Assembly: GCA_040757475.1 (NCBI GenBank)
Contig: JBFLWW010000001.1
Coordinates: 55,769-119,768, forward strand
Origin: Nitrospirota bacterium
GTDB taxonomy: Bacteria > Nitrospirota > Thermodesulfovibrionia > Thermodesulfovibrionales > SM23-35
Length of the DNA: 64,000 bases
Direction: 5' to 3'
Shown: positions 4,334-62,896 of the stretch, one piece after another
Position numbering within the stretch: position 1 is the stretch's first letter
How the letters are laid out: every line of letters begins with the position of its first letter
The notes under the pieces: generated by a model
The model's database searches: none
Told to the model about the DNA's origin: nothing
What the model saw: only the letters and a program-made list of their open reading frames with translations
Position numbers and translations under genes: made by a program

Positions 4334-4368
4334 CTGAAAGCTGAGAGCTAAATGCTTAAAGCTGAAAA
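4334..4368. repeat. heptamer array (single arm): CTGAAAG CTGAGAG CTAAATG CTTAAAG CTGAAAA
   Basis: Five consecutive 7-nt units read directly in the murI-rph spacer. Confidence 0.8.
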
Positions 4369-4378
4369 TGGAGGCTGA

Positions 4379-5110
4379 ATGAGACCTGATGGCAGGAAAA
4401 ACAATGAGATACGTGATGTAAGGGTTCACAGGAATTTCGTAGGGACTGCTGAGGGTTCAGTACTGATTTCGATGGGGAATACAAGGGTAATATGTACGGC
4501 CTCCATTGAGGACAAAGTTCCACCTTTTCTGAAGGATCAGAAGAGGGGATGGATAACAGCAGAGTACTCTATGCTTCCACGGTCAACACCGACAAGGATT
4601 ATGAGGGAATCCAGCACAGGCAGGATTGGAGGAAGGACTCATGAGATTCAGAGGCTTATAGGCAGGGCACTCAGGTCTGTTGTTGATCTGTCAACCCTCG
4701 GCGAAAGGACAATGTGGATAGACTGCGATGTAATACAGGCAGACGGAGGCACAAGGACAGCAGCAATAACAGGTGCGTTTATATGCCTCTCAGATGCATT
4801 GAGATATGCACTGAGAAACGGTCTTGTAGAAAAGATGCCAATCAAGGACTATCTTGCTGCTGTAAGCGTAGGGATTGTCAATGGCGAGCCGATGATTGAC
4901 CTCTGTTATTCAGAAGACTCTATAGCAGAGGTGGACATGAATATTGTGATGACAGGAAGCGGAAAGCTCGTCGAGATACAGGGAACTGCAGAGGGGATAC
5001 CTTTTTCAAAGGCAACATTGGATAATCTTATAAAACTTGCAGAAGAGGGTATAAACAGACTTATAGAGATACAGAAAAGGTTAATAGAGGGTGAACCAAT
5101 CAGTTTCTGA
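4379..5110 (+). CDS. rph: ribonuclease PH
   Basis: 243 aa. Starts MRPDGR..NE.R and contains [18 protein letters not shown]. Confidence 0.93.
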
Positions 5111-5190
5111 AAAAGCTTCCCTAATATGGTAAAATGAAATTGTATGGGCATTTGGTCCTGAACCGCTACTGGTTCAGGATTGAATCTGTT

Positions 5191-5218
5191 TAGAATTTAG
5201 ATATTAGAGATTAGGATT
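5191..5218. repeat. heptamer array (single arm): TAGAATT TAGATAT TAGAGAT TAGGATT
   Basis: Four consecutive 7-nt units upstream of ftsH. The hairpin TCCTGAACC..GGTTCAGGA lies at about 5155-5179. Confidence 0.75.
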
Positions 5219-5239
5219 TGTCTTTCTGGAGGTAATGGA

Positions 5240-7048
5240 TTGAACATTTATAGAAGTCTGTTTGTCTGGTTATTAATTGGAGTGATGATGATACTTCTTT
5301 TCAATCTTCTAAGTGCTCCCAAGAAGATGGAAGAGGAGATAATATTTTCTGAGTTTATGACCAGGCTTGAGGCAGGTGATGTTGAAGAGGTTGTCATAAA
5401 AGAGAACCATATAACTGGCAGATTAAAAGATGGTAAAAGGTTCAAGACATATGCTGCGGAATATCCTGACCTTGTAAAGATCTTAAGGTTTCAGAATGTA
5501 AGGATTACTGCAAAGCCTGCAGAACAGAACCCATGGTATTGGAACCTCTTTTTCTCATGGGGTCCTATAATCTTCCTCGCCCTTGTCTGGATATTCTTCA
5601 TGCGGCAGATGCAGACAGGCGGTAACAGGGCATTATCCTTTGGCAAGGCAAAGGCAAAACTGGTCTCTGAAAAGTCGGTCAAGGTAACCTTTGCTGATGT
5701 TGCGGGAATAGAAGAGGCAAAGGGAGAGGTTCAGGAGGTTATAGACTTTCTCAAGGATCCCCAGAAGTTTCAGAAGCTCGGAGGTAAGATCCCTAAGGGC
5801 GTACTCTTAGTTGGTGCACCAGGTACAGGTAAGACACTTCTTGCGAGGGCTATTGCAGGTGAAGCTGGAGTGCCTTTCTTCTCGATATCAGGCTCTGACT
5901 TTGTGGAGATGTTTGTTGGAGTTGGTGCATCGAGGGTCAGGGACCTTTTTGAGCAGGCAAAGAAGAATGCACCATGCATTATCTTTATTGACGAGATAGA
6001 TGCTGTTGGACGCCACAGGGGAGCAGGCCTCGGCGGGGGTCATGATGAGCGTGAGCAGACCCTGAATCAGCTCCTCGTAGAGATGGATGGTTTTGAAAGC
6101 AATCAGGGAATCATTATCCTCGCAGCCACAAACAGGCCAGATGTCCTCGACCCTGCACTTCTAAGGCCAGGCAGGTTTGACAGGCAGGTAGTTGTCCCAC
6201 AACCCGATGTAAAGGGAAGACTTGAAATACTTAAGGTTCATACAAGGAACATCCCGGTTGATGAGAGGGTTAGCCTTGAGCAGATAGCCAGAGGAACACC
6301 TGGTTTTTCTGGTGCTGACCTTGCAAATCTTGTTAATGAGGCTGCCTTGCTTGCAGCAAGAAAGTCAAAGAGCAGGGTCGAGATGTCTGATTTTGAAGCA
6401 GCAAAGGATAAGGTGCTGATGGGTGTGGAAAGAAAGAGTATGATAATAAGCGAGACAGAGAAGAGGAATACCGCCTATCATGAGGCAGGCCATGCGCTTG
6501 TCGCAAAGTTAACACCAGGCACTGACCCGATACATAAGGTGAGCATTATCCCGAGGGGGAGGGCCCTCGGTGTTACACAACAGCTTCCTATAGATGACAG
6601 ATACACTTATTCTAAGGACTATCTTATGAAGGCCCTGTCGGTTCTCCTCGGAGGCAGGGCTGCAGAGGAGATCGCATTGAAACATATGACCACAGGGGCT
6701 GGCAATGACCTTGAACGTGCAACAGAGCTTGCGAGAAAGATGGTTACAGAGTGGGGCATGTCTGAAAAGCTTGGCCCCCTTACATTCGGGAAAAAGGATG
6801 AACAGATATTTCTTGGAAGAGAGATAGCAAAGCACAAGGATTACAGTGAAAAGACAGCAATTGATATAGATGAAGAGGTTAAGAGGATAGTGATTGAGTC
6901 ATATAATATATCTAAAAAACTCCTCGCAGAAAAACACGACCTTCTTGATGCACTCGCAAAGGCACTTCTCGAAAAGGAGACCATGGATGGGGCTGAGATA
7001 GATGCAATCATCCGTGAAGTAGAATCAAAAAGGACAGTTCAGGCTTGA
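5240..7048 (+). CDS. ftsH: ATP-dependent zinc metalloprotease FtsH
   Basis: TTG start after GGAGG. Two N-terminal TM helices, Walker [14 protein letters not shown], the SRH region and zinc motif HEAGHA. Confidence 0.96.
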
Positions 7049-7890
7049 GGCTTGCCTGGAAAGACTTTTTATTAGACTTTTCTAAAAAGACCTATATCAT
7101 GGGAATCCTGAATGTCACACCTGATTCCTTTTCTGAGGATGGTCTGTACTTGGATAAGTCTCAAGCAGTCAAAAGGGCGCTCCAGATGGTCGAGGACGGC
7201 GCTGATATTATTGATATCGGAGGTGAATCAACAAGGCCTGGCTCAGAACCAGTCACCATCGAAGAAGAGTTAAGACGCACCATACCTGTTATTGAGAGAC
7301 TCGCAAAGGAGATTAAAAACCCGATATCCATTGATACATATAAGTCAGAAGTAGCTAAAAGTGCGCTTGATGCAGGAGCAGCGATGGTTAATGATATAAG
7401 CGGATTAAGATTCGACCCTCATATGCCCGAGGTTGTCTCTGAATATAAGGTGCCAGTTATAATAATGCACATAAAGGGAAAACCAAAGGATATGCAGGTA
7501 AATCCAGTATACGAGGCACTAATCCCTGAGATTATGGATTACCTGAGGATAGGTATAAGATTAGCAATGAAATCAGGAATCTCGGAAGATAAGATTATAA
7601 TAGACCCTGGAATTGGCTTTGGTAAGACATTTGACCATAACCTCGAGATAATTAATAACCTTCGTGAATTCACATTCCTAAGAAAGCCAATCCTGATAGG
7701 CCCATCAAGAAAGGCATTCATAGGAAAGATCCTTGGAGATGTGCCTGTAACAGATAGGCTTGAAGGTACTGCAGCAGCGGTCACCATCTCTATAATGAAT
7801 GGTGCAAATATAATCCGTGTTCATGATGTTAAGGAGATGGTAAGGGTTGCAAAGGTGGCAGATGCAATAAAAAGGGAAAGGGTTAGTTAA
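7045..7890 (+). CDS. folP: dihydropteroate synthase
   Basis: Motifs [11 protein letters not shown] and [13 protein letters not shown]. The gene overlaps ftsH by 4 nt. Confidence 0.93.
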
Positions 7891-9302: not shown

Positions 9303-9359
9303 TTGAGACCCGAATGTGCGTGTCAAATATCTGTGACTTTGTGATATGATTTTTCTGGT

Positions 9360-10352: not shown

Positions 10353-10355
10353 TAA

Positions 10356-10414
10356 GCATAGAGCTAAGAGCGAAGAGTGAATAGTCAAAAACTCTATGCT
10401 CTTTGCTCTCTGCT
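10356..10414. repeat. two-arm heptamer element (GCATAGA GCTAAGA GCGAAGA GTGAATA GTCAAAA / ACTCTAT GCTCTTT GCTCTCT GCT)
   Basis: It fills the convergent galT/cooC spacer. The right-arm units complement the left-arm units, so it probably also acts as a bidirectional terminator. Confidence 0.8.
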
Positions 10415-10417
10415 AAT

Positions 10418-17545: not shown

Positions 17546-17552
17546 ACAACGT

Positions 17553-17660
17553 GATAATAACCAAATTCCAAGCACCAATAATCAAATAATAACCAAGTAC
17601 CAATACCAAACATTACTGGGTGATTGCATCATTGGTTATTGTAATTTGGTTATTGGAATT
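17553..17660. repeat. two-arm heptamer element, CCAATAA/TTGGTTATTG class
   Basis: The left arm is ..ATAACCA AATTCCA AGCACCA ATAATCA.. and the right arm is ATTGGTTATTGTAATTTGGTTATTGGAATT. TTGGTTATTG (17632-17641) recurs at 61071-61080. Confidence 0.8.
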
Positions 17661-17673
17661 TAATTTATATTAT

Positions 17674-20237: not shown

Positions 20238-20299
20238 GGATTAATATAACATAAAGAGAGTAACGAGTGACGGGAAGAGATATAAAAAAAATTTAAAGA

Positions 20300-20384
20300 G
20301 CAAAATGAAAAATTACAATTCAAAATTCAAAAATACATTTTTCCTTAATTTTGCATTTTTAATTTTTATTTTTGAATTTTTCAT
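20300..20384. repeat. two-arm heptamer element, CAAAA/TTTTG class, overlapping the start of the DUF3108 gene
   Basis: The left arm is GCAAAAT GAAAAAT TACAATT CAAAATT CAAAAAT and the right arm is CCTTAAT TTTGCAT TTTTAAT TTTTATT TTTGAAT TTTTCAT. The 19-mer TTCCTTAATTTTGCATTTT (20341-20359) is identical to 25397-25415. Confidence 0.85.
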
Positions 20385-21069
20385 ACATACACCCATTGCC
20401 ACACCCTTCAACATACCTGAGAAATTTGAATATGATCTTACATGGAAAGGTATCAGGGCCGGGACAGCATCCCTCGAGATAATAAACGATGGAAATAAGA
20501 TAAGGATTGTTTCGACTGCACGATCAGCAAAATGGATCTCTGTATTTTATACAGTAGATGACAGGGTAGAAAGTACTCTGATAAAAAATGAATCATCATT
20601 TATCGGCCAACCATTAAACTACAGGCTCAAGATAAGAGAAGGCAGACATAGAAGAGATAAGGAGGTCATTTTTAAGCAAGACATTGGTAAAGCCACATAT
20701 ATAGACTACCTTACTAATGAAAAACAAGAATTCGACATACCTTTTTTTATCTTTGACCCAGTATCAAGTTTTTATTATCTTAGAACACTTCAACTTGAGG
20801 TAGGAAAGCCTGTTTATATGACTATTTTTGACAGCAAGAAGGTGTGGAATGTAGAGATTAAGGTTCTGAAAAAAGAGCGGCTGGAGCTTCCTACCGGGGT
20901 TTTCGATACAATACTCGTAAAACCCATTATGAAATCAGAAGGCATCTTTCACAGAAAAGGTGATATACTTATCTGGCTTACAGATGATAAAAGGCGCATA
21001 CCAGTAAGAATGAAGACAAAGATAGTTGTAGGCTCTGTGGTGGCAACTCTTGTAGGAGGAGACTATTGA
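20305..21069 (+). CDS. DUF3108-domain protein (secreted)
   Basis: Hydrophobic N-terminus, then YDLTWKGIRAGTASLEI... and a C-terminal ..IPVRMKTKIVVGSVVATLV pattern typical of DUF3108. Confidence 0.7.
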   Translation: MKNYNSKFKNTFFLNFAFLIFIFEFFIHTPIATPFNIPEKFEYDLTWKGIRAGTASLEIINDGNKIRIVSTARSAKWISVFYTVDDRVESTLIKNESSFIGQPLNYRLKIREGRHRRDKEVIFKQDIGKATYIDYLTNEKQEFDIPFFIFDPVSSFYYLRTLQLEVGKPVYMTIFDSKKVWNVEIKVLKKERLELPTGVFDTILVKPIMKSEGIFHRKGDILIWLTDDKRRIPVRMKTKIVVGSVVATLVGGDY

Positions 21070-21818
21070 TACCCCTGTCTGTTGCCATTATTACAAAAGA
21101 TGAAGAGATTAATATTGGTAATTCGATTGAAAGCGTCAAAGATGCTGCAGAGATCGTGGTCATAGATTCCTTCAGTTCAGATAAAACAGTTGAGATCTGC
21201 AGGAGATATACAGACAGGGTATTTCAGAAAGAATGGCAGGGATATGCAAGACAGAAACAGATGGCTGTGGACATAGCAAAAGGCCCATGGGTGTTAATTC
21301 TCGATGCTGATGAAAGGGTTACACCAGCGCTGAGAGATGAGATTACTGAAATCCTGAAAAACACAGTGTGTAATGGTTTTTATATACCCAGGAAAAACTT
21401 TTTCCTCGGAAAATGGATCAGACACAGCGGATGGTGGCCGGATTACACCCTGAGGCTTTTCAGGAAAGACACAGCATTTATTGAAGATCGTGAGGTTCAT
21501 GAGAAGGTTATTGTAAAAGGCAGGTTAGGATATCTCAAGAACCCTGTGGAGCATTATACCTGCAGGACTATCTCTGATTTTTTACAGAAGATGGAAAATT
21601 ATTCAACACTATCGGCAGAGGAGATGAAGGTGAGAGACTCTATACCCGGTGTATTTTCACTCGTACTACGTCCTTTATTTACATTTTTAAAAATGTTTTT
21701 TCTCAGGCGGGGTTTTCTGGATGGGGTTCACGGATTGATACTATCCGTGCTTTACAGTTATTATACTTTTCTGAAATATATAAAGGTGTGGGAGTGCTCT
21801 AAGGGAACCGAAAAATAG
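21066..21818 (+). CDS. glycosyltransferase family 2 (LPS-core type)
   Basis: Motifs LSVAIITKDEE..I...I.S, VVIDSFSSDKT and ILDADE. It overlaps the upstream gene by 4 nt. Confidence 0.85.
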   Translation: MIPLSVAIITKDEEINIGNSIESVKDAAEIVVIDSFSSDKTVEICRRYTDRVFQKEWQGYARQKQMAVDIAKGPWVLILDADERVTPALRDEITEILKNTVCNGFYIPRKNFFLGKWIRHSGWWPDYTLRLFRKDTAFIEDREVHEKVIVKGRLGYLKNPVEHYTCRTISDFLQKMENYSTLSAEEMKVRDSIPGVFSLVLRPLFTFLKMFFLRRGFLDGVHGLILSVLYSYYTFLKYIKVWECSKGTEK

Positions 21819-21972
21819 AGATAGGAAAGGCTGTCTCAGAATTTTTATAATCGACAGGATTATTAATATGGCAATCGTAAGTGCCTTAAAGATTAAAGGT
21901 TTATTCGTTTACGCCTCAAAGGGTTTTACTTTAAGGTGTCGTATAAAAATTCTTCACCAGCCTTCCCTATCT
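21819..21972. repeat. 154-bp element bounded by ~37-bp imperfect inverted repeats (MITE-like or structured RNA)
   Basis: AGATAGGAAAGGCTG..TCAGAATTTTTATA (21819-21849) faces TATAAAAATTCTTCACCAGCCTTCCCTATCT (21942-21972). The inner pair is CCTTAAAG/CTTTAAGG. Confidence 0.5.
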
Positions 21973-22016
21973 AACCTGATAGTTTTATACATAGGGAATA
22001 ATGAAGGGAGGTCGCT

Positions 22017-25345: not shown

Positions 25346-25356
25346 TTTATCTCCTT

Positions 25357-25437
25357 AAAATCAAAAATCAAATATTAAAAAATCAAAATTATGGAGTTCC
25401 TTAATTTTGCATTTTGATTTTTGCATTTTACATTTTT
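25357..25437. repeat. two-arm heptamer element, CAAAA/TTTTG class, inside the por operon (porA-porB spacer)
   Basis: The left arm is AAAATCAAAAATCAAATATTAAAAAATCAAAATT and the right arm is TTCCTTAATTTTGCATTTTGATTTTTGCATTTTACATTTTT. Confidence 0.85.
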
Positions 25438-25438
25438 A

Positions 25439-27610: not shown

Positions 27611-27655
27611 TTTTGAGTCATTGAGTTTGCTCAGTTTACTTAGTTTATCGGGTTT
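27611..27655. repeat. single-arm 7-9-nt periodic array, GAGTTT/GGGTTT class
   Basis: TTGAGTCA TTGAGTTT GCTCAGTTT ACTTAGTTT ATCGGGTTT. The 14-mer AGTTTATCGGGTTT (27642-27655) is identical to 52591-52604. Confidence 0.75.
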
Positions 27656-29405: not shown

Positions 29406-30795
29406 ACGCTGCTATCACAGCATTGAGTTTCCCTTCGACAAACTCTTTTATTTCCCTGAGAGATTCTTCGTCTTTTGCCTCGAACCTCATCACAAGCGCA
29501 GGCTGGGTGTTTGAAGCCCTAATAAGTGCCCATCCTTTATCAAACTTAATCCTTATACCGTCAATATCATTAAGAGGGTAGTCCCTGAATGCCTCTTTTG
29601 TCTTATCAACTATCTTGAACTTTATCTCATCTGGGCATTCAAATCTTATCTCAGGTGTTGACACACTCTTGGGGATATCTGCGAGGAGCCGCTTTATGGA
29701 ATAGGGTCTTCCGTTCTTTGCAAGTATCTCAAGAAGCCTCAAGCTCGCATATATAGCGTCATCGTATCCGAAATACCTGTCAGAGAAGAATATATGGCCG
29801 CTCATCTCTCCACCAAGCAGTGCGCCTGCCTCTTTCATCTTACTTTTTATGAGTGAGTGTCCTGCCTTCCACATAATGGGATTCCCTCCGAGCCTTCGTA
29901 TCTCATCATACATTACCTGAGAACATTTCACCTCACCCACAAATGTTGGGGGTTTTGAGCTTTGAGCTTTGAGCTTTAGGCTTTGAGTTTCAATGATGTC
30001 CCTTGCAAATATAATCATCAGCCTGTCTCCCCATACCACATCACCATCCCTATCAACAACACCAATCCTGTCAGCATCTCCATCATAGCCGATTCCGAGG
30101 TCTGCACCATGAGCTGATACATTTGCAATAAGGTCTTTTATATTATCCATTACTGTAGGGTCAGGATGGTGGTTTGGAAAATTTCCATCGGGTTCGCAAT
30201 AAAGCTCTATCACCTCGCAGCCTAAGTCCTTCATTAGTTGCGGTGCCAGAAGGCCGGCTGTGCCATTACCCGCGTCAATTACAACCTTTATCCTGTCAAA
30301 TTGAGAGAAATTTCTCTTAAGGTGTCCTATATATTTTGGGATTATCTCATATACTTCGGTTGTCCCTCTCCCCTGAGTAAAATCACCCTGTTCCACTATC
30401 CTCTTTACATCCTGTATCTTTTCTCCATAAAGGGTTTCTTTGCCTACACTGAGTTTCATGCCATTGAATTCAGGAGGGTTGTGGCTTCCTGTAATCATCA
30501 CTCCACCGTCAACAGGGAGATGGAATAGAGAGAAGTACTGAAGAGGAGTTGGGCATATGCCAATATCTACAACATCAATTCCGCTAACAAGGAGCCCATG
30601 CGACAATGCTTCAAGTATAGCAGGAGAACTCAGTCGCACATCCCTTCCAATGCTCACCTTTATTTTTTCTTTTTTGAGGGCGGCCCTCAGATAAACTGCA
30701 AATGCCCTGCCTATCTTTTCTATAACCTCTTCTGTGAGGTCCCTTCCCCATATCCCTCTTATATCATACTGTCTGAAGATTGCAGGATTTAACAC
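29398..30795 (-). CDS. phosphomannomutase/phosphoglucomutase (alpha-D-phosphohexomutase)
   Basis: Active-site loop TGSHNPPEFNGMK, metal loop GYDGDADR and GGEMSGH. Confidence 0.9.
   Translation of the reverse strand: MLNPAIFRQYDIRGIWGRDLTEEVIEKIGRAFAVYLRAALKKEKIKVSIGRDVRLSSPAILEALSHGLLVSGIDVVDIGICPTPLQYFSLFHLPVDGGVMITGSHNPPEFNGMKLSVGKETLYGEKIQDVKRIVEQGDFTQGRGTTEVYEIIPKYIGHLKRNFSQFDRIKVVIDAGNGTAGLLAPQLMKDLGCEVIELYCEPDGNFPNHHPDPTVMDNIKDLIANVSAHGADLGIGYDGDADRIGVVDRDGDVVWGDRLMIIFARDIIETQSLKLKAQSSKPPTFVGEVKCSQVMYDEIRRLGGNPIMWKAGHSLIKSKMKEAGALLGGEMSGHIFFSDRYFGYDDAIYASLRLLEILAKNGRPYSIKRLLADIPKSVSTPEIRFECPDEIKFKIVDKTKEAFRDYPLNDIDGIRIKFDKGWALIRASNTQPALVMRFEAKDEESLREIKEFVEGKLNAVIAAFN
29953..29992. repeat. 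heptamer array inside the phosphomannomutase ORF
   Basis: The minus strand reads ACTCAAA GCCTAAA GCTCAAA GCTCAAA GCTCAAA, translated as ..ETQSLKLKAQSSKPP... Confidence 0.8.
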
Positions 30796-33294: not shown

Positions 33295-34047
33295 TTGACT
33301 GTTCTGGCTTACTCAAGGCTAAAACAAAGGGCCCTTAGAATTTCTGAGGCCTTAGGTGAACCGTCTTTTTATACCAATCATAAAAAAGAGATGCAGGTAT
33401 CTTCTGAATCTCTAAGGACAAATTCAATCCTGAAAAAATGCAGGTCTTATCTCGACGAATCTTTGATGGATCCAGGGCACGGGTTGGCCCATGCTGAGGC
33501 AGTAGCAATTGACGCAGGAACCATCATACAGGTTGAGGGCAAAATTCATAACCTGGACAGCAGCACAGTCAACGAGCTTATTATTTATGTGCAGATAGCA
33601 GGACTCCTGCATGATATAAAACGCAAAGAAAAAGACCATACCATTGCTGGAAGCGAGGAAGCTAAAAGGGTATTAAATGATTTTCAGATAGAAGACCGCT
33701 ACAGACGATACATCGTAGCTGCTATCAGAAATCATGAGGCATTTAAAGAGGTCTTAGAATCTGAAGACGAAACAGATAGGTTAATCAGTGATTCACTTTA
33801 TGATGCGGATAAATTCAGGTGGGGGCCTGATAACTTCACCACCACCCTCTGGTTGATGTTGAATTCAGCAAATATACCAATAGAAACATTACATAAAAAT
33901 TTCATAGGAAACATAAAATATATAGAAAGTATTAAGGACACCTTCCGGACCCAGACAGGTAGAAAATATGGTCCGGAAATCATAGACATGGGGATTGCAA
34001 TCGGCCATGCTATTTATAAAGAGATGACAGATATGCGGGGTAAATAA
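33295..34047 (+). CDS. HD-domain metal-dependent phosphohydrolase
   Basis: TTG start after GGGAG, with GHGLAHAEAV...GLLHDIKR (H..HD). Confidence 0.7.
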   Translation: MTVLAYSRLKQRALRISEALGEPSFYTNHKKEMQVSSESLRTNSILKKCRSYLDESLMDPGHGLAHAEAVAIDAGTIIQVEGKIHNLDSSTVNELIIYVQIAGLLHDIKRKEKDHTIAGSEEAKRVLNDFQIEDRYRRYIVAAIRNHEAFKEVLESEDETDRLISDSLYDADKFRWGPDNFTTTLWLMLNSANIPIETLHKNFIGNIKYIESIKDTFRTQTGRKYGPEIIDMGIAIGHAIYKEMTDMRGK

Positions 34048-39559: not shown

Positions 39560-39577
39560 TCTTCACCTCCATTTTTT

Positions 39578-39649
39578 AGTTATGAGTGATGAGTTACGAG
39601 TGAGAAGTTAAAAACTATGGACCTTTAAACTTCTCGTTTAACTCGTTAC
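39578..39649. repeat. two-arm heptamer element (TTATGAG TGATGAG TTACGAG TGAGAAG TTAAAA / TTTAAACTTCTCGTTTAACTCGTTAC)
   Basis: Read directly in the qmoC-hppA spacer. Confidence 0.8.
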
Positions 39650-39700
39650 CGCCTTCTTTTGCTACCTGTTACTAAATCTTCCACCTCCCCTCATTTTTTA

Positions 39701-49184: not shown

Positions 49185-49203
49185 CTTAACACCTCCTTTT
49201 TAC

Positions 49204-49240
49204 AAAATTTTAAATTTTAAATTTTAAATTTTAAATTTTT
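49204..49240. repeat. (TAAATTT)x5 perfect-to-near-perfect tandem heptamer upstream of aprB
   Basis: AAAATTT TAAATTT TAAATTT TAAATTT TAAATTT, read directly. Confidence 0.9.
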
Positions 49241-49287
49241 AAGACCCCCACCTCCTTTCTTCTCAGGATTTCGCTTCTTTTTAGTCC

Positions 49288-51921: not shown

Positions 51922-51953
51922 TAGACTCCAATTAGACTCTAAAAATAGACTCC
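51922..51953. promoter_or_regulatory. three direct repeats TAGACTC(C/T) spaced 11 and 13 bp, upstream of the adk-sat promoter
   Basis: TAGACTCC 51922-51929, TAGACTCT 51933-51940 and TAGACTCC 51946-51953. Confidence 0.35.
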
Positions 51954-51977
51954 AAAAATTACAATTTATAAATAAAA

Positions 51978-52577: not shown

Positions 52578-52578
52578 A

Positions 52579-52675
52579 CTTAGTTTATTGAGTTTATCGG
52601 GTTTGCTGGGTTTCTTAAATTATAACACAAGAAACAGTATAAACTCAAGAAACCCAGCAAACTGTGTAAACTGAG
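52579..52675. repeat. two-arm 7-9-nt periodic element, GAGTTT/GGGTTT class, in the divergent rdgB/RDD spacer
   Basis: The left arm is CTTAGTTTATTGAGTTTATCGGGTTTGCTGGGTTTCTT and the right arm is CAAGAAACAGTATAAACTCAAGAAACCCAGCAAACTGTGTAAACTGAG. AAGAAACCCAGCAAAC is the exact complement of part of the left arm. Confidence 0.85.
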
Positions 52676-52717
52676 CCACTGTTGAAAAATTTAGTAATCT
52701 TCTGTTAACATTTTAAA

Positions 52718-54155: not shown

Positions 54156-54941
54156 ATGCCCAGGAAGAGGCTTCTGCTTTTTCTCTTTATAATCACATCC
54201 CTCAGCTTGATGACTTATCAGAGTAACAGAGAACATCTCCTGCCCCTTAAATTCCTGAGTAACACACTTAACAGGTTTCATGCTATAGCGAATTCTGTAA
54301 AGGACTCGGTTACCTCTCCTTTTAAAAGGATGCTCATCAGGGAAGAGGAAAATATAAGATTAAAAGCAGAACTTAACAAATTATTCAAAGAACAGCAGAG
54401 GTACCAGGAGGCTCTGCTCGAAAATAAGAGACTCAGGGAGATCCTCTCGCTTAAGGAAAAAGGGCAAGGGTATGTTACTGCTGCACGTGTTATAGCAAGA
54501 GGTGCAGACCAGTGGTCAAATACATTTATCCTCGATAAGGGGCTCTCAGACGGGGTTGTAAAAGACATGACGGCTATTACACACAGAGGGCTGGTAGGGA
54601 AGATCTCATGGGTATCTGATTCTTACTCAACCCTGCTTCTCCTCACTGACATAAACTTCTCTGCAGCGGTAAGGCTTCAGGAAAGCAGAAAAGAGGGTAT
54701 AATCTCAGGTACAGGCTTCAGGAAATGCCAACTGAAATACATCCCCTCTGAAGAAGAGGTAAAGACAGGCGATATTGTAGTAACATCAGGACTTGATTCA
54801 CTATTCCCTCGGGGCATCCCTGTAGGCTATGTGTCAAAGGTGGACAAAAAGGGCACAGGGCTTTTCCAGGACATCGAAGTGCTTCCATTTGAGGATAATA
54901 CAAAGATTGAGGAGGTAGCAATAATAAAAAATCAAAGATAA
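54156..54941 (+). CDS. mreC: rod shape-determining protein MreC
   Basis: N-terminal TM helix, the coiled coil ENIRLKAELNKL, and GLVGKI plus IVVTSGLDSLFPRGIPVG. Confidence 0.88.
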   Translation: MPRKRLLLFLFIITSLSLMTYQSNREHLLPLKFLSNTLNRFHAIANSVKDSVTSPFKRMLIREEENIRLKAELNKLFKEQQRYQEALLENKRLREILSLKEKGQGYVTAARVIARGADQWSNTFILDKGLSDGVVKDMTAITHRGLVGKISWVSDSYSTLLLLTDINFSAAVRLQESRKEGIISGTGFRKCQLKYIPSEEEVKTGDIVVTSGLDSLFPRGIPVGYVSKVDKKGTGLFQDIEVLPFEDNTKIEEVAIIKNQR

Positions 54942-55033
54942 AAATTTAAATGCAAAATTGAGGAAATTTATTTTTGAAATTTTGAATTGTAATTTTGTAT
55001 TTTGCTTTTTGAATTTTGATTTTAGTGATTTTA
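54925..55033. repeat. two-arm heptamer element, CAAAA/TTTTG class (mreC-mreD junction)
   Basis: The left arm is AAAAAATCAAAGATAAAAATTTAAATGCAAAATTG and the right arm is ATTTATTTTTGAAATTTTGAATTGTAATTTTGTATTTTGCTTTTTGAATTTTGATTTTAGTGATTTT. Confidence 0.8.
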
Positions 55034-55041
55034 GAGGCATC

Positions 55042-55497
55042 ATGATAGCATACATACGATGGACATCCATAATTCTTTTAACCTTCCTCATACAGGGAAA
55101 GGTATCATTGTTCGATATCCCACCGAACTTCACATCTGTTTTAGCATACTATGCAGGCATAAGGAATGGAGAGACCAAAGGGATGTTTTTGGGCTCACTG
55201 ATTGGAATAATTGAAGATAGCCTCTCAGCTACATTCCTTGGCCCCAGTCTTCTGAGTAAGGGCCTCGTGGGTTATTTTTCTTCCTTCATGTCTGGTAGTT
55301 TCTTCAGATGGACCCCTCTTTTAGGCATCATTGGAATATCAATCCTAACATTAGTAGACAGCATCGTTGTTTTAATCTCAAGGGGTATCTTTGATAGAAT
55401 GCCAGTGAGTATCGGGGCAGCAGTTTTTATAGTCACAATACAGTCAATGATAAACGCCCCTTTAGGGATATTTCTGAGGCCGAAGAATGTACAATAA
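55042..55497 (+). CDS. mreD: rod shape-determining protein MreD
   Basis: A polytopic 151-aa protein in the canonical mreBCD position. I place the start at ATG 55042, because the track start 54958 translates the repeat element. Confidence 0.75.
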   Translation: MIAYIRWTSIILLTFLIQGKVSLFDIPPNFTSVLAYYAGIRNGETKGMFLGSLIGIIEDSLSATFLGPSLLSKGLVGYFSSFMSGSFFRWTPLLGIIGISILTLVDSIVVLISRGIFDRMPVSIGAAVFIVTIQSMINAPLGIFLRPKNVQ

Positions 55498-55572
55498 GCA
55501 GGGTTACTAAGGAGTTCATAGGTAAAACCACATAAGTATCGCTGTAGTATTAGTATTAAAGGTTGGATAAAA

Positions 55573-57426
55573 TTGAAAAGTGAATCTGAAAAGATATTGA
55601 TAATAAGCTACATAGTGATTGCGGTCTTTCTGCTGCTCATAATGAGGTTGTGGCAGCTTCAGATACTGCAGGGCAGCAAATACAGAAATATGTCTGAAGC
55701 TAACAGGCTAAGGATAATGACGATACCGGCACCCCGGGGAATAATATTTGACAGAAACGGTACCCCGCTTGTAAAAAACTCCTCTTATTACTGTGCCTCG
55801 ATAATCCCTGATGAATTTGATAGGGTTAAGGTCGAAATGCTTGCAAAAGTCCTTAACATGCCGGTTAAGGGGATATTCGAAAAAATAAACAAGAAGGAAC
55901 TAAGTCCTTTTATACCTATAAGACTAAAACAAGGGCTGTCTTTCAATGAGGTCGTATATATTGAATCGAGGCGATCAGACTTCCGGGGTCTTATCATCGA
56001 GACTGAGGTAAGCAGGGAATATATTTATGGTGATGTTGGTTCACACCTCATAGGTTATCTTGGAAAACTTAATCCCTCCCAATCAAAAGACCCTGCATTC
56101 AGGGATGTACCACCAGAGGCATTCATAGGGCAGTGGGGTGTTGAGATGCTATTCGATAAATCACTAAGGGGTATACCAGGCAAGAGGGTTATTGAGGTTG
56201 ATGCACTCGGCAGGGAGATAAAACTGTTACAGGAAAAATCTCCAATAAAAGGAGAAGACCTCATGCTGAGCATAGACATTAATCTCCAGAAAGAGGCTGA
56301 GAAAGCGTTTGGAGAAAGGGCAGGTGCACTTGTTGCAATTAAGCCCAACACCGGCGAGATACTGGGATTGATAAGCAGGCCTTCTTTTGACCCCGACCTC
56401 TTCGCAAGAGGTATAAGTCATGATGAATGGATAGCCCTTACCCAGGATAAAAAGAAGCCCATGCTTAACAGGGCACTACAGAGTCAGTATCCTCCTGGCT
56501 CAACATTCAAGATTGTTACTGCAATAGCAGGACTTGAGGAAGGAGTTATTACCCCTGAGACAAAGGTAGAGTGCAGGGGTGGAATTAACTATGGCAGGTG
56601 GCGTTTTGGCTGCTGGCGTAAAAAGGGGCACGGCGTAGTTTCCCTGCATAGGGCGCTGGTAGAATCATGTGATGTATATTTCTACGAGGTGGGTAAACGT
56701 CTCGGCATAGATAAAATTTATAATTATGCCACAAGTCTTGGCCTCGGAAAAGAAACAGGCATTGAACTTGGAAAAGAAAAGCAGGGATTGATGCCAAACA
56801 CAAAATGGAAGCAGGAAAACAAAAGACTTCCATGGTTCTTAGGTGAAACCTTTAATACAGCAATAGGACAGGGATATGTTTCTGCAACACCTATACAGAT
56901 GGCAGTTATGACAGGTGCAATAGCAAATGGTGGGAATCTATACAGGCCAACACTGATTAAGGACCTCCGACCAGTACTTTCAGGAAAGGCGAAGATAAGA
57001 CCCGAGACTCTTGATATCATTAAAAGCGCACTTTCCGGTGTTGTGAATGAGCCCGGTGGGACTGGATGGGCTGCAAAATCACCATTAATAAGCATCGGAG
57101 GTAAGACAGGGACCGCACAGGTTGTGAGGATGAAGATGGGCTTTAAGTATTCCCCAGAGAGATTCAGGGACCATGCATGGTTTGTTGCATTTGCCCCGGT
57201 AGAAAAACCAGAGGTAGCACTTGCAGTATTTGTCGAACATGGCGGACATGGCGGAGGGGCTGCAGCACCAATTGCAAAGAGGGCGATAGAAGGATATATG
57301 AACAGTTCAAAGTTCAAAGTTCAAAGTTTGACTCTGAATCAAGTTCAGGCCAAAATTCAAAATTCAAAACTCAAAACTCGAAACTCGAAATTCAAAAATG
57401 ATACACATAGATCGCAGATTAATTAA
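55573..57426 (+). CDS. mrdA: penicillin-binding protein 2 (elongasome transpeptidase)
   Basis: TTG start and TM helix. The PBP dimer domain is followed by STFK, SCD.. and KTGTAQ. The C-terminal ~40 aa are translated from a heptamer array. Confidence 0.92.
   Translation: MKSESEKILIISYIVIAVFLLLIMRLWQLQILQGSKYRNMSEANRLRIMTIPAPRGIIFDRNGTPLVKNSSYYCASIIPDEFDRVKVEMLAKVLNMPVKGIFEKINKKELSPFIPIRLKQGLSFNEVVYIESRRSDFRGLIIETEVSREYIYGDVGSHLIGYLGKLNPSQSKDPAFRDVPPEAFIGQWGVEMLFDKSLRGIPGKRVIEVDALGREIKLLQEKSPIKGEDLMLSIDINLQKEAEKAFGERAGALVAIKPNTGEILGLISRPSFDPDLFARGISHDEWIALTQDKKKPMLNRALQSQYPPGSTFKIVTAIAGLEEGVITPETKVECRGGINYGRWRFGCWRKKGHGVVSLHRALVESCDVYFYEVGKRLGIDKIYNYATSLGLGKETGIELGKEKQGLMPNTKWKQENKRLPWFLGETFNTAIGQGYVSATPIQMAVMTGAIANGGNLYRPTLIKDLRPVLSGKAKIRPETLDIIKSALSGVVNEPGGTGWAAKSPLISIGGKTGTAQVVRMKMGFKYSPERFRDHAWFVAFAPVEKPEVALAVFVEHGGHGGGAAAPIAKRAIEGYMNSSKFKVQSLTLNQVQAKIQNSKLKTRNSKFKNDTHRSQIN
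57305..57397. repeat. heptamer arrays (GTTCAAA x3; AAATTCA AAATTCA AAACTCA AAACTCG AAACTCG AAATTCA) at the mrdA/rodA junction
   Basis: Read directly. The arrays lie inside the 3' end of the mrdA ORF and end at the rodA ATG (57398). Confidence 0.85.
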
Positions 57427-58519
57427 AAATTTTGACTGGGTAACACTCTCTATCGTCATAATCATAGCATTTATCGGAATTATGACCATATACAGTGCTA
57501 CACGCCCCCTTGCCGCAGAAGAGCATTCAGGGTTCTATATAAAACAGGCATTATGGTTTGTACTCGGAATCATCGCATTATTCTTGATTGTTAGTTTTGA
57601 CTATGTATGGTTGAGCAGATTTTCACTTTACTTCTATATCGCAGGCATTATTTTTTTAATAACCGTGTTTATCTTCGGGAAGCCAGGTATGGGGGCCCAG
57701 AGATGGCTGAGCATCGGGCCTCTTTCCTTCCAGCCATCAGAGTTTTTTAAATTCACATTCATAATAATGCTCTCACAGCAATTGAGTAAAATGAATAGCC
57801 CTGTCAGCATAACATCACTTTTTCGGATATTCTTTTTAATTGTATTTCTTCCATTTCTACTTCTTATTAAACAGCCTGACCTCGGAACAGCATTAATAAT
57901 CCTGACAATCTTTGTCTCTTTAATACTTGCAAAAGGGCTCTACAAAAGGGTTGCAATACTGCTGGTAATTATAGGCTTGATATCTCTGCCTTTCCTCGGC
58001 AATATACTCTGGGAAGGACTCAGAGACTATCAGAAAAACAGGCTGGTTGCCTTTATAGAACCGGAGGTAGACCCGACAGGGGTAGGCTATCACATAAATC
58101 AGTCTAAGATTACCGTGGGCTCAGGTGAGTTCCTCGGAAAGGGTTACCTGAAAGGCACACAGGGGCCATTCAGGTTTCTCCCGGAGAAACATACAGACTT
58201 TATCTTTGCAGTCTTTGCTGAGGAGTGGGGATTCTTCGGAAGTCTCCTGCTTTTATCTCTCTATCTCATCTTAATATTGCGGGGGCTTGATACAGCGAGG
58301 AAGGCAAAGGATGACTTCGGGAGGCTACTTGCACTCGGAATAACATTCATGTTTTCAATCTATTTATTTGTTAATGTCGGGATGACACTCGGCATGATGC
58401 CAGTCGTTGGGATACCTCTACCATTCATGAGCTATGGAGGAACTGCACTCCTGTCAAATCTCCTATCAATAGGGGCACTTATCAATATCAGGACTCGACG
58501 CTTTTACCTCTTTTACTGA
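57398..58519 (+). CDS. rodA: rod shape-determining protein RodA (SEDS glycosyltransferase)
   Basis: 373 aa and about 10 TM helices. Motifs QPSEFFK, LQPDLGTA and PLPFMSYGG. Confidence 0.93.
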   Translation: MIHIDRRLIKNFDWVTLSIVIIIAFIGIMTIYSATRPLAAEEHSGFYIKQALWFVLGIIALFLIVSFDYVWLSRFSLYFYIAGIIFLITVFIFGKPGMGAQRWLSIGPLSFQPSEFFKFTFIIMLSQQLSKMNSPVSITSLFRIFFLIVFLPFLLLIKQPDLGTALIILTIFVSLILAKGLYKRVAILLVIIGLISLPFLGNILWEGLRDYQKNRLVAFIEPEVDPTGVGYHINQSKITVGSGEFLGKGYLKGTQGPFRFLPEKHTDFIFAVFAEEWGFFGSLLLLSLYLILILRGLDTARKAKDDFGRLLALGITFMFSIYLFVNVGMTLGMMPVVGIPLPFMSYGGTALLSNLLSIGALINIRTRRFYLFY

Positions 58520-58553
58520 GCAGGCTTTTTTGTTATAATTTTAAAACCTTTAA

Positions 58554-58581
58554 CTATTCGCTCTTCACTAATCACTGTTTT
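58554..58581. repeat. heptamer array (single arm): CTATTCG CTCTTCA CTAATCA CTGTTTT
   Basis: Read directly between rodA and tRNA-Met. Confidence 0.6.
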
Positions 58582-58586
58582 TAGAT

Positions 58587-58663: not shown

Positions 58664-58695
58664 GAACATCTATAATCTCTAACCTTGCAAAAACC

Positions 58696-58725: not shown

Positions 58726-58744
58726 TTTTACTTGGAGAAAGGCA

Positions 58745-58885: not shown

Positions 58886-58932
58886 AACGCAGAAAATCCC
58901 TGCAGCCCTTAACGAAGAGATATGACTTTGAT

Positions 58933-59425: not shown

Positions 59426-59427
59426 AA

Positions 59428-60996: not shown

Positions 60997-60997
60997 T

Positions 60998-61106
60998 CTC
61001 CAATCACCAATAATCAAACACCAATAACCAAATAAGCTCCAATAACCAATTACCAAACTCAAGAAATTGTTTGGTTATTGAAATTTGGTCATTGGTTATT
61101 ACCCAA
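60998..61106. repeat. two-arm heptamer element, CCAATAA/TTGGTTATTG class
   Basis: The left arm is CTCCAATCACCAATAATCAAACACCAATAACCAAATAAGCTCCAATAACCAATTACCAAAC and the right arm is TTTGGTTATTGAAATTTGGTCATTGGTTATTACCCAAT. Confidence 0.85.
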
Positions 61107-61125
61107 TCTGCGTTATACTATAAAT

Positions 61126-62517
61126 ATGTCCACTGACGATACCATAGCTGCGATATCCACTCCTGTTGGTGAGGGGGGAATAGGGATTGTCAGATTGAGT
61201 GGGGAAGATTCTGTAGAGATTGCAGAAAAAATCTTCTACTCTCCAAAAAATAAATTTCTTCGTGATTCAAAATCCTACAGAGTTATCTATGGCTTTATAA
61301 AAGACCCAACAACCGGAGAAGAGGTTGACGAAGTGCTCATTACAGTAATGCGCTCTCCCTACTCTTATACAAAAGAGGATGTCGTTGAGATAAACTGTCA
61401 TGGAGGAATGATTCCACTCAGAAAGACACTCGAGCTTGTCCTGAAAGAAGGTGCAAGGCTTGCAGAGCCAGGGGAGTTTACTAAGAGGGCATTTATAAAT
61501 GGAAGGATAGACCTCAGCCAGGCAGAGGCAGTACTTGATCTCATAAGGTCTAAGACGGATGAGAGCAGAAGGATTGCGATTGAGCAACTTCAGGGCGGTC
61601 TCTCTGAAAAGATAACAGCACTGAGAGACAGGTTGACAGAGCTCTGTGCCCATGTAGAGGCATACATTGACTTCCCTGAGGATGAGATAGAGACAGCATC
61701 AAAACAGGACATGTTAGGGTCAATGAAAGAGATTATCAGAGAACTTCAGGCACTCCTCAAGAGCTATGATGAGGCAAGGTTCTTCAGGGAGGGACTTTCA
61801 ACTGCAATCGTTGGAAGACCAAATGTAGGGAAATCATCCCTCCTCAATGCACTCCTTAAAAAAGATAGGGCAATAGTTACAGAGGTTCCAGGGACAACAA
61901 GGGATGTGATCGAGGAGTATCTGAATATAAATGGGCTTCCACTTAGAATCATGGATACAGCAGGTATAAGAGCTGTACAGGATATTGCTGAGAAGGAGGG
62001 TGTAAGAAGAAGTCTTCAGAGTATCGAGAATGCTGACCTTGTGATTGCCATCTTCGACAGTAGTGAACCTTTTAAAGATGAGGATTTCGAGGTTATGGAG
62101 AAGATAAAGGGTAAGAATGCAATTATTGTCATAAACAAGTGTGACCTCCCATCAGCATTTGATGAAGATACACTCTCATCTTGCATCCTGCATCCTGCAT
62201 CACGTATCTTGCAAATCTCTGCAACCCGAGGCGATGGTCTCGAGGAACTAAAGGACAGGATATTCGATTTATGTCTAAAGGACTGGAGGGAGGAAAGAGA
62301 AGGAGTTGTTATAACAAACCTCAGGCACAAGACCGCCATAGAGAATGCTAAGGCATCACTCGATAGGGCAATGTATGCATTGATAGAGAATCAACCACTC
62401 GAAATCCTTGCCCTCGAGCTCAGGGATTCCCTCGACAGGCTCGGTGAAATCGTTGGAGCTGTCACAACAGAGGATATACTGAACAGGATTTTCAACGATT
62501 TTTGTATCGGGAAATAG
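61126..62517 (+). CDS. mnmE: tRNA modification GTPase MnmE
   Basis: MSTDDTIAAISTP.G.GGIGIVR.SG, G-domain GRPNVGKSSLLN / DTAGIR / NKCD, and C-terminal FCIGK. The track start 61078 lies in the repeat element. Confidence 0.93.
   Translation: MSTDDTIAAISTPVGEGGIGIVRLSGEDSVEIAEKIFYSPKNKFLRDSKSYRVIYGFIKDPTTGEEVDEVLITVMRSPYSYTKEDVVEINCHGGMIPLRKTLELVLKEGARLAEPGEFTKRAFINGRIDLSQAEAVLDLIRSKTDESRRIAIEQLQGGLSEKITALRDRLTELCAHVEAYIDFPEDEIETASKQDMLGSMKEIIRELQALLKSYDEARFFREGLSTAIVGRPNVGKSSLLNALLKKDRAIVTEVPGTTRDVIEEYLNINGLPLRIMDTAGIRAVQDIAEKEGVRRSLQSIENADLVIAIFDSSEPFKDEDFEVMEKIKGKNAIIVINKCDLPSAFDEDTLSSCILHPASRILQISATRGDGLEELKDRIFDLCLKDWREEREGVVITNLRHKTAIENAKASLDRAMYALIENQPLEILALELRDSLDRLGEIVGAVTTEDILNRIFNDFCIGK
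62177..62218. repeat. heptamer array inside mnmE: CATCTTG CATCCTG CATCCTG CATCACG TATCTTG CAAATCT
   Basis: Read directly; it is translated as ..SSCILHPASRILQIS... Confidence 0.75.
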
Positions 62518-62616
62518 TATATATAATATATCAAACATTGGCATTGCTGTATTTTAGGTTCTATGTCTATTTTCAGATAGTTCAGATAGTATGGTAAATT
62601 AGAAAAGGAGGCTATT

Positions 62617-62811
62617 ATGGAATGCATACAGGAAAAATTTAAGAAATACTGTATCTGCACATATGAGCCATGTGAGAGAAAAAGTAGATGCTGTGAATGC
62701 CTCCATTATCACAGAAGAAATGGAGAGCTACCAGCATGCTTCTTCAATAAAGAATATGAAAGGACTTATGAACGCTCTATAGCGAATTTTATACGTATGC
62801 ATAAGAAATAA
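62617..62811 (+). CDS. small Cys-rich protein (resembles the DUF6485 family as I recall it)
   Basis: 64 aa with C.C....C.R...CC.C..YH...G.LPACFF. AAGGAGG SD upstream. Confidence 0.5.
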   Translation: MECIQEKFKKYCICTYEPCERKSRCCECLHYHRRNGELPACFFNKEYERTYERSIANFIRMHKK

Positions 62812-62896
62812 AAAGTTCAAATGTCAAAGCTCAAATTTCAAATGTCTTTGATATTTTGATTTATTTGGTATTTGAATTTTGGATTTTGAATTTGTT
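62811..62896. repeat. two-arm heptamer element, TCAAA/TTTGA class
   Basis: The left arm is GTTCAAA TGTCAAA GCTCAAA TTTCAAA and the right arm is TCTTTGA TATTTTGA TTTATTTGG TATTTGA ATTTTGG ATTTTGA ATTTG. Confidence 0.85.

Follow-up and report, generated by a model that had tools for sequence, protein, structure and literature searches.

Heptanucleotide-periodic arrays, about half of them two-armed, in the spacers of an uncultured Nitrospirota genome

We analysed a 64 kb stretch of DNA (the window, ~42% G+C) from Nitrospirota bacterium GCA_040757475.1, an uncultured sulfate reducer. The window contains housekeeping genes (glnA, smpB, tmRNA, rph, ftsH, rnpA, yidC, mnmE and mreBCD-pbp2-rodA), por genes, genes for ATP synthase subunits a and c and for phosphoglucomutase, and genes of the sulfate-reduction type (aprBA, qmo-like genes and hppA). 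Between these genes, and at a few places within them, lie short tandem arrays of imperfect 7-nt units. These arrays are a real and well supported feature. When weaker and off-period members are included, we observe ~19 loci, in keeping with the at least 18 claimed in the original prediction, which was made from the DNA letters alone. A complementary second arm, which that prediction had assigned to most loci, is present at only about half of them (about 9-10 of 19).

Arrays were called as ≥4 units with ≥75% identity at a given lag, with 20 dinucleotide shuffles as control. At lag 7 the detector identified 16 arrays in the window, whereas these composition-matched shuffles averaged 0.15 and never exceeded 1, and at lags 8-15 it returned 0-1 arrays (0-3 when lags 5 and 6 are included). 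Tandem Repeats Finder (TRF) reports ~25 period-7 rows in the same sequence. Autocorrelation over the 39 spacers (5,095 nt) yields a lag-7 identity of 0.339 versus 0.286 in shuffled sequence (z = 8.3), with further signal at the multiples (lag 14, z = 5.9; lag 21, z = 4.0), and 0 of 300 shuffles matched the observed values at these three lags. Shoulders at lags 8, 9 and 13 agree with the occasional 8-9 nt units described before; the loci at 27624 and 52582 have 9-nt units and that at 51922 has 13-nt units. Altogether, 6.3% of the intergenic bases and 0.43% of the genic ones belong to arrays, which are pervasive and non-random across all spacer types and within open reading frames (ORFs), as had been proposed.

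The strings quoted in the original prediction were all found where it had placed them, including the exact 19-mer shared by 20341 and 25397, the 14-mer shared by 27642 and 52591 and the 10-mer shared by 17632 and 61071. Its description of the units themselves, with 4-5 positions fixed and the rest drifting, did not hold: mismatches are scattered over the seven unit positions no more unevenly than chance would place them (three data sets: z = 0.1, -1.6 and -0.7), which gives no support for a binding core. The single family of constant architecture also dissolved into several unit classes, about half of the loci being single-armed. In total, 80 arrays from the window and from loci of related genomes (L001-L081) yield >40 consensus heptamers. 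These consensus units are biased in composition, with ACTC/GAGT in 19 units (4.2 expected) and AACT/AGTT in 24 (7.8 expected).

The closest relatives of the window's RodA are uncultured Nitrospirota/Thermodesulfovibrionales metagenome-assembled genomes, the best at 95% identity in a series down to 57%. Logan contigs from SRR29635772 cover parts of the window at 99.95-99.99% identity and, because of that identity, are assigned to the same strain; exact-protein look-ups of aprB, the ATP synthase c subunit and DUF3108 found this same strain only (again 99.95-99.99%), and those of hisF and rph found no record. L081, a contig of GCA_049324155.1, is 98.2-98.8% identical (~98.5%) to the window and on this ground is classed as a sister strain. 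The nucleotide identity of L001 is 92-96%, and the proteins of L002 are ~84% identical to the window's. Two further loci, L099 and L114, are allelic metagenome loci. Since independent assemblies carry parts of the window, the arrays are not an assembly artefact, nor are they confined to the window, as related genomes and metagenomes carry them too.

Several single-arm arrays occupy spacers and leaders. An AGCTGAA x5 array (4332-4368, +; TRF 5.1 copies, also called by the detector) fills the murI-like/rph spacer up to the GGAGG ribosome-binding site, and a TAGANNT x4 array lies in the rph/ftsH spacer (5187-5218, +; detector), where a fold z of 0.26 indicates that it is unstructured. Here TAG-N4 occurs four times upstream of ftsH (5191-5218), with the same spacing as UAG-N4, to which the antiterminator HutP binds. 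Upstream of the POR gamma gene is a 9-nt array, AGTTTAYYN (27624-27655, -; TRF period 9), whose 14-mer AGTTTATCGGGTTT is common with 52591. A perfect (AAATTTT)x5 array with a self-complementary unit is found directly upstream of the aprB ribosome-binding site (49199-49246, -; TRF 100% matches, score 70; Pfam APS-reductase_C) and is identical in the independent assembly L082. The tRNA-Met leader holds (A/C)ACTNNT x4-5 (58545-58586, +), recognised by sequence. A peripheral, off-period member, the 13-nt tandem array TAGACTCCAAAAA x3, lies between two minus-strand genes (51922-51959, -; TRF period 13, 3.1 copies).

Other arrays lie within ORFs. A (GCTCAAA)n array, read on the coding strand of the phosphoglucomutase gene (29944-29990, -; TRF 4.9 copies, 85% matches), encodes a 9-residue loop insertion relative to PDB 2fkf in a phmmer alignment. 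At 57297-57403 (+), AGTTCAA x3 followed by AAAAYTC x6-7 (TRF 100% and 90% matches) specifies the C-terminal tail of PBP2 and extends as far as the rodA start. A CATCYTG array in mnmE (62171-62215, +; TRF 94% matches) lies where MnmE is variable and adds no net insertion in the alignment to PDB 1xzp.

Of the two-arm loci, four belong to classes other than the dispersed families A and B described below. A GCNNAGA arm facing a TCTNNGC arm lies between convergent galT-like and ParA-like genes (10353-10417, no strand assigned; minimum free energy -29 kcal/mol; TRF rows at 10360 and 10392; Pfam). The GAGTNAN/NTNACTC element (39573-39652, -; TRF; fold -19.2 kcal/mol, z = -2.0) had been placed between qmoB and qmoC; by Pfam it lies between the qmoC-like gene and the H+-pyrophosphatase gene, while the other two intra-operon placements of the original prediction, porA-porB and mreC-mreD, stand. 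Its unit class is also present in L001, L008, L052 and L081. A hairpin of 9-nt units occupies the divergent ham1/RDD region (52578-52680, -; minimum free energy -37.7 kcal/mol; inverted repeats I6 and I7). Finally, a TCAAATG/TTTGAAT hairpin in the DUF6485/tRNA-Leu spacer (62811-62900, +; fold -23.8 kcal/mol; TRF) is identical in L081, and the same spacer in L001 carries a two-arm array of another class, GAGTTAC/AACTTTT.

Two side observations concern the ham1/RDD hairpin. A promoter-like TTGAGT-18-TATAAT (52648-52619, -), among the better ones of the region, lies inside it with the -10 box in the loop. In L081, positions 1-131, aligned to window 52578-52653, consist of unrelated sequence and an eight-C run joined inside the right arm of the hairpin, a junction explained either by an insertion or by a chimeric assembly at this repeat.

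In family A, an (AAAATNC)n arm is followed by a centre that includes TTCCTTAA and then by (GCATTTT/GATTTTT)n; its four window copies are 80-87% identical over 84-89 nt. The first, a partial copy cut by the window edge (1-61, +; nhmmer with a family-A profile, E = 3.7e-5, with alignment and Pfam), lies in the leader of glnA (68-1396). The second lies in the divergent hisF/DUF3108 region (20298-20386, no strand assigned) and shares the 19-mer with the third, which fills the porA/porB spacer and ends at the porB ribosome-binding site (25350-25438, -; Pfam POR_N and TPP_enzyme_C); the 39-nt arms of this third copy (I1) are accompanied by inverted repeats in other registers (I9, I23, I25). The fourth lies between mreC and mreD (54931-55043, +), was assigned by profile and alignment, is 87% identical over 84 nt to the hisF/DUF3108 copy and is polymorphic between strains. 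Three copies have, besides the genuine ribosome-binding site at the 3′ foot, a Shine-Dalgarno-like AAGGAA in their centre (25385-25400, 20335-20350 and 54960-54975), on the same strand as the downstream gene.

Family B elements consist of a (CCAATAA-type)n arm, a loop and a (TTGGTTA-type)n arm, and the two window copies are 78% identical over ~115 nt. One lies between the pfkB-family and ThiI-like genes (17550-17662, +), where inverted repeats I4, I11, I13 and I20 reflect several registers, and the other in the yidC/mnmE spacer (60997-61108, +; I2, I16). A short-read contig breaks at 17561, within the first of these. The ends of the window copies of both families are fuzzy.

The presence of these elements differs between genomes. 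The 113-nt mreC|mreD element is missing in L081, where mreC and mreD overlap by 4 nt, and at this junction most relatives have an overlap or 2-8 nt and no element; in the window it brings a new mreC stop codon as well as a new mreD ribosome-binding site and start codon. The yidC|mnmE family-B element is missing in L001. Window 17556-17596, 41 nt in which six different unit variants follow one another, matches L002 6860-6900 at 100% identity; the latter lies in the rodA/tRNA-Met spacer, a site non-orthologous to pfkB|thiI. The mreC|mreD spacer of L002 is 224 nt long and has family-B arms outside with a GATACAC/CATCCTG hairpin nested inside. The order of variant units recurs at unrelated sites and in other genomes, and presence differs between near-identical strains; the two-arm elements have therefore been copied or imported as units and have not only grown in place. 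On these sequence comparisons, at least two unit classes, A and B, are best described as dispersed copy-and-paste elements and not as locally grown arrays.

In L002, adjacent spacers (3017-3242 and 3682-3963) hold family-B elements whose right arms are near-identical over a long string; the loop of one contains a nested hairpin of a different heptamer, and that of the other ~90 nt of G+C-rich sequence unrelated to it.

Smaller changes are seen at the level of the unit. Relative to the window, L081 is missing one AGTTCAA unit in the pbp2 3′ tail (window 57290-57426, L081 4640-4760). Since the missing 7-nt unit lies within this tail, the frame of the tail differs between the strains, a 617-aa ORF in the window corresponding to a 583-aa call in L081. 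In L081 a unit is also swapped in the neighbouring AAAATTC/AAAACTC array, and 18 nt between direct CCAATAACCAA repeats are deleted from the left arm of the yidC|mnmE family-B element. Compared with L001, the array within mnmE lies three units (21 nt) out of register between conserved flanks, a 9-mer, TTCAGATAG, is duplicated relative to L001, and the allelic loci L099 and L114 differ by a 7-nt TGGTGAT indel. The tail that relatives encode at the pbp2|rodA junction is '...EGYLKNSK', with AAAAATTCAAAA, a motif that is expanded to AAATTCA/AAACTCA arrays in the window and L029, while L060, L072 and L075 have other units at the same place. The expansion of this tail motif indicates that arrays can also grow in place.

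No inverted repeats in the window are longer than those of the two-arm arrays, whose arms pair in several registers, as had been predicted. Compared to shuffles, RNA-fold z-scores are -6.65 (element at 10353), -6.43 (52578), -6.28 (60997), -3.31 (62805), -2.8 (17546) and -2.76 (25346); three further arrays fold at z ~ -2, and the single-arm arrays show z close to 0. Among 59 arrays of related genomes, 15 are accompanied within 130 nt by a reverse-complement partner, compared to 6 with a complement-only partner, 1 with a reverse-only and 1 with a direct partner. Since complementarity holds at the level of the unit class, pairing is possible in many registers. We observed no co-evolution of the arms among 106 metagenome copies: the own left flank was the best partner of the right arm in only 2, and mean complementarity was 31.0 to the own partner and 29.7 to other copies. 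The sense strand folds better in 9 of 12 elements overall and the antisense strand in family B, so that strand preference as a sign of RNA-level selection gives a mixed result (family A and the 62805 element sense, family B antisense).

Most arrays either occupy operon spacers between a stop codon and the following ribosome-binding site or lie in leaders, and a few are found in dispensable coding segments. In five operon spacers (porA|porB, qmoC|hppA, DUF6955|aprB, mreC|mreD and murI|rph) the array fills the interval from stop codon to ribosome-binding site. An array is present in the tRNA-Met leader not only in the window but also in L001, L003, L021 and L052, and L002 has a 140-nt family-B hairpin there; in the window and L002 alike it starts ~7-12 nt after a promoter-like TGnTATAAT. 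The promoter-like site directly before the window array (58512-58539, +) is among the better ones of the region.

A family-A copy also reaches into a protein. The only possible start codon of DUF3108 lies inside the repeat (20305-20400), whose + strand provides the N-terminus: MKNYNSKFKN, rich in Lys and Asn, comes from the A-rich arm, and a stretch rich in Phe, Leu and Ile from the T-rich arm. An independent record has the same call of a 254-aa product. Together the two arms resemble a signal peptide, and the repeat may have been recruited as the secretion signal of DUF3108.

Beyond this genome, a 23-nt family-B arm pattern, GGTTATTGNAATTTGGTYATTGG, was found in at least 120 stretches of public metagenomes. 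Among the matches listed, the contigs range from 29 to 60% G+C, and the MreB or RodA encoded by some of them shares only 37-53% identity with that of the window. Of the 110 non-redundant matches listed, 102 fall outside long ORFs, and their gene context is co-directional in 36 cases, convergent in 15 and divergent in 11; 147 ORFs neighbouring the listed copies fall into 133 different Pfam families. One metagenome subfamily has a 60-nt arm with sharp ends, GAAATAACC...GGTTATTTC, and unrelated flanks, and includes half-elements and one interrupted copy. Its termini are inverted repeats with defined ends, as in MITEs (miniature inverted-repeat transposable elements), and no target-site duplication is evident in the subfamily. 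The metagenome family-B loci also hold two-arm heptamer arrays of other classes, including G+C-rich units in the 60% G+C contig. A blastn search of a plasmid collection with the family-B element gave no match, and the arm pattern matched once in 2.9 million viral contigs, indicating that the element is not phage-borne.

Arrays are unevenly distributed among relatives. Density per 10 kb is 2.9 in L001-L003 and 2.5 in the window, compared to 0.44 for the remaining 77 Thermodesulfovibrionales loci; no arrays at all are present in 50 of 80 related loci (over-dispersion p = 5e-8).

Searches for known elements returned little. Rfam at gathering scores found only tmRNA and three tRNAs in the window, and at E ≤ 0.5 the sole match to an array was a chance mir-137 hit in the hairpin at 52601-52662. 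A weak fluoride-riboswitch-like match at 33508-33562 (-), with 22.1 bits against a gathering score of 34 and E = 0.097, is probably chance. A MITE-like element of conventional type lies at 21811-21980, where terminal inverted repeats of 31 nt (AGATAGGAAAGGCTGTCTCAGAATTTTTATA) enclose 92 nt; L056 has three occurrences of similar termini and L067 about five, and same-strain short-read contigs break in the element at 21859 and 21939.

We favour, with somewhat better than even confidence, the interpretation that small non-coding repeats prone to slippage have bloomed in this lineage as arrays, some of which are now hairpins similar to MITEs or to REPINs (hairpin-forming doublets of repetitive extragenic palindromic, REP, sequences; Bertels and Rainey 2011, PMC3116915). 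In its favour are the restriction of the excess to lag 7 and multiples of it, the unit turnover, the growth in place, the copying of whole elements and the uneven density among relatives described above, and the lack of a transposase, RNA family or terminator signal that would account for the arrays. Tandem units of 7 nt, and sometimes of 8, 9 or 13, are gained and lost whole in a manner that matches replication slippage, and slippage with a preference for 7 nt would create and resize the arrays. A second arm could arise by inverted duplication or template switching within an array, and complementarity of the class rather than of the copy would allow pairing in many registers. Two-arm elements of ~90-150 nt are copied or imported whole to unrelated sites and would spread to new spacers by transposition or recombination. 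The arrays lie almost only in transcribed spacers or tRNA leaders and occasionally in protein tails, loops or a signal peptide. As side effects, mRNAs would acquire hairpins, overlapping genes would be uncoupled and protein ends altered. Most copies would probably be neutral or selfish.

Several observations weigh against this interpretation. No mobilising enzyme was identified, and the window contains no transposase. Beside the family-B copies there is none among the 25 families listed out of the 133 from the 147 neighbouring ORFs, a survey in which a single-copy RAYT (REP-associated tyrosine transposase) elsewhere would be missed. The 3′ half of mreC and all of mreD (54400-55600) are ~9% divergent from L081, compared to ~1% in the rest of 11 kb, and this block around the mreC|mreD element may have been imported by homologous recombination rather than reflect transposition. 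The sole candidate for a target-site duplication is the imperfect 10-nt direct repeat ATCAAAGATAA/ATCATGATAG at that insertion. Array positions persist across species at the tRNA-Met leader and at pbp2|rodA while the units change, which could mean selection for function, and G.U pairs favour the sense-strand fold in three of four family-A copies and in the 62805 element. Copy counts come from 64 kb of genome, and a genome-wide number is an extrapolation.

Some of these points belong to the main rival, a cis-regulatory RNA role, which we consider unlikely. Here the hairpins and A/U-rich arrays would be selected elements that control the processing, stability or translation of downstream cistron mRNA, in the manner of REP/BIME (bacterial interspersed mosaic element) stabilisers, RNase III/E sites or S1-binding enhancers. 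The filling of five operon spacers from stop codon to ribosome-binding site, the retention of a tRNA-Met leader array in six genomes despite a change of class, and the sense-strand G.U pairs all argue for such a role, as does the similar position of Beggiatoaceae TAACTGA repeats before start codons, where a role in translation was proposed (PMC4679880). However, presence varies between 98.5%-identical strains, and classes are replaced between close species. Family B folds better as antisense, and an excess of 9 of 12 elements favouring sense is modest; the complementarity of an arm to its own partner does not exceed that to the arms of other copies. Arrays also occur in convergent spacers and ORFs, and most relatives lack arrays at the same junctions.

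A bolder idea, which we think quite improbable, is that the two-arm heptamer elements constitute an unnamed class of non-autonomous mobile DNA that crosses phyla and is served by a dedicated enzyme generating and keeping the 7-nt register, which could be a transposase or primase-polymerase, or else a regulator that binds single strands and moves or reads in steps of seven bases. It is suggested by the conservation of family-B arms in contigs of 29-60% G+C whose MreB and RodA are as little as 37-53% identical. If true, finding an enzyme with a 7-nt register would explain the dominance of heptamers among long tandem repeats of bacteria.

The opposite extreme, to which we assign still less weight, is a purely local by-product: every array would have slipped into being in situ, and likenesses between arrays would reflect a shared unit bias. 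Direct gain and loss of units, the pbp2 tail array built from a pre-existing A-rich motif and the ACTC and AACT excess given above all fit this reading, as does the idea of heptamer slippage that PMC4679880 attributes to Mrazek 2007. It is already strained by the 41-nt string of six variants that is identical at non-orthologous sites of two species, by the mreC|mreD element, 113 nt long where a 98.5%-identical strain has a 4-nt gene overlap, and by the sharp-ended metagenome subfamily with its 60-nt arm. The 84-nt stretches of 87% identity common to separate spacers also run counter to it.

Rho-independent, possibly bidirectional, terminators with repetitive stems appear very unlikely. The very stable hairpin at 10353-10417 lies between convergent genes and TTTTT follows the 62805 hairpin, but none of the 15 intrinsic terminators predicted in 44-64 kb overlaps an array (shuffle mean 17.0), the stems are A/T-rich and mostly without U-tracts, and many elements are intra-operon, before a ribosome-binding site.

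We give equally little credence to arrays as a regulon of platforms for a protein that would recognise single strands of RNA or DNA at 7-nt intervals, in the way that HutP recognises repeated UAG-N4: strict periodicity, the four TAG-N4 units upstream of ftsH and the recurrence of the family-B arm motif across the metagenome contigs would fit, but the >40 consensus heptamers in 80 arrays, the chance spread of mismatches with no fixed core and the lack of any known candidate protein speak against it.

What is new here is a variant of a known and still unexplained kind of repeat, in a phylum for which we found no literature description; among the papers listed by our literature search, none joins heptamer repeats with Nitrospirota or Thermodesulfovibrio, and a search by the unit strings of the cyanobacterial short tandemly repeated repetitive sequences (STRR) gave only noise. 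The evidence shows no new mechanism. Heptamers have been known in bacteria since 1990, as STRR, and as the commonest long tandem unit since 2007. This lineage is unusually informative in that many classes occur side by side in single-arm and hairpin forms, near-identical strains differ by units and by whole elements, and clear relatives are array-free; this combination makes the questions of why seven, and who makes them, testable. In practical terms, the elements break short-read assemblies, shift start and stop calls (the pbp2 tail, mreD, ThiI, mnmE and the DUF3108 signal peptide) and generate protein-length polymorphism in core cell-wall genes.

Among known systems, our best reading is that the arrays are related in kind to heptamer long simple sequence repeats (LSSR) and STRR, and to the inverted heptamer pairs of Xanthomonas. 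The earlier likening to STRR heptamers and REP/BIME hairpins is apt. STRR heptamers, reportedly described by Mazel et al. in 1990 in heterocystous cyanobacteria, have the consensus units CCCCAGT, TTGGTCA and CAACAGT and, like the arrays here, are dispersed, intergenic and tandem. The TTGGTCA/TTGGTTA units of family B match the STRR unit TTGGTCA, although family B mixes it with TTGGTTA and other variants, and the two-arm design and copy-and-paste behaviour lie outside the STRR definition. Membership was rejected: the window contains no tandem dimer of any of these units or of their complements, and the host is a member of the Nitrospirota/Thermodesulfovibrionales and not a heterocystous cyanobacterium. 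The ACTC/AACT bias of the window and related units echoes the ACTG core of two STRR units and of TAACTGA.

REP, BIME and REPIN sequences share with these elements an intergenic location in transcribed spacers, hairpin-forming inverted doublets, dispersal and strain variability. REP arms are a single imperfect palindrome of 20-40 nt, and REPINs are tied to the RAYT (Y1) transposase, whereas the window arms are tandem arrays, with four family-A and two family-B copies in 64 kb. MITEs and Rickettsia palindromic elements are likewise small, non-autonomous and palindromic and can sit in frame inside genes, and the nested insertion in the L002 mreC|mreD spacer is MITE-like; in contrast to MITEs, the window elements have no clear target-site duplication, fuzzy ends in families A and B and internally periodic arms. 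We know of no parent insertion sequence for them.

The TAACTGA heptamers of Beggiatoaceae, located just upstream of start codons with a proposed role in translation (MacGregor 2015, PMC4679880), resemble the window arrays in being short and directly upstream of start codons, and in the occurrence of one motif across distant phyla (Beggiatoaceae, Cyanobacteria, Bacteroidetes) by no known transfer mechanism. They comprise one unit type that is almost never inverted (one indirect repeat versus 169 direct sets; PMC4679880), unlike the arrays here, and TAACTGA itself has 0 occurrences on either strand of the window. According to Mrazek 2007, as relayed by PMC4679880, heptamers are the commonest LSSR unit in bacteria and polymerase slippage was proposed as their source. 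LSSR are tandem repeats of 5-11 nt units that exceed in length or number what composition would predict, and they favour non-coding DNA where the unit length is not divisible by three. They share with the window (PMC4679880, PMC4692102) a 7-nt tandem excess that is mainly intergenic and taxonomically patchy with a slippage source; the window likewise has a 7-nt unit dominant over shuffles and other lags and a preference for non-coding DNA. The window arrays differ from LSSR in being short (4-8 units) and imperfect, of many classes, about half inverted-paired and in some cases dispersed as whole elements.

The nearest described arrangement among the repeats compared is that of Xanthomonas, with STRR, LSSR and TAACTGA next. 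Xanthomonas genomes have 70-75 convergent pairs of GGGAATC heptamer arrays each (Rehm et al. 2015, PMC4692102), so that the original statement that the design could not be mapped to a named family was too strong. The Xanthomonas and Nostoc repeats, like those of the window, are intergenic heptamers, in Xanthomonas as convergent pairs able to form stem-loops, and frequent convergent pairing is also found here at the two-armed half of the loci; close species differ in the length and sequence of those arrays but retain their position (PMC4692102). Those repeats consist of one G-rich, quadruplex-forming motif with a G-tract unit, GGGAATC or GGGGAYT (PMC4692102), whereas the window units are A/T-rich without G3 tracts and fall into many classes, which sets them outside the G-rich unit type, and here one class is common to very different genomes.

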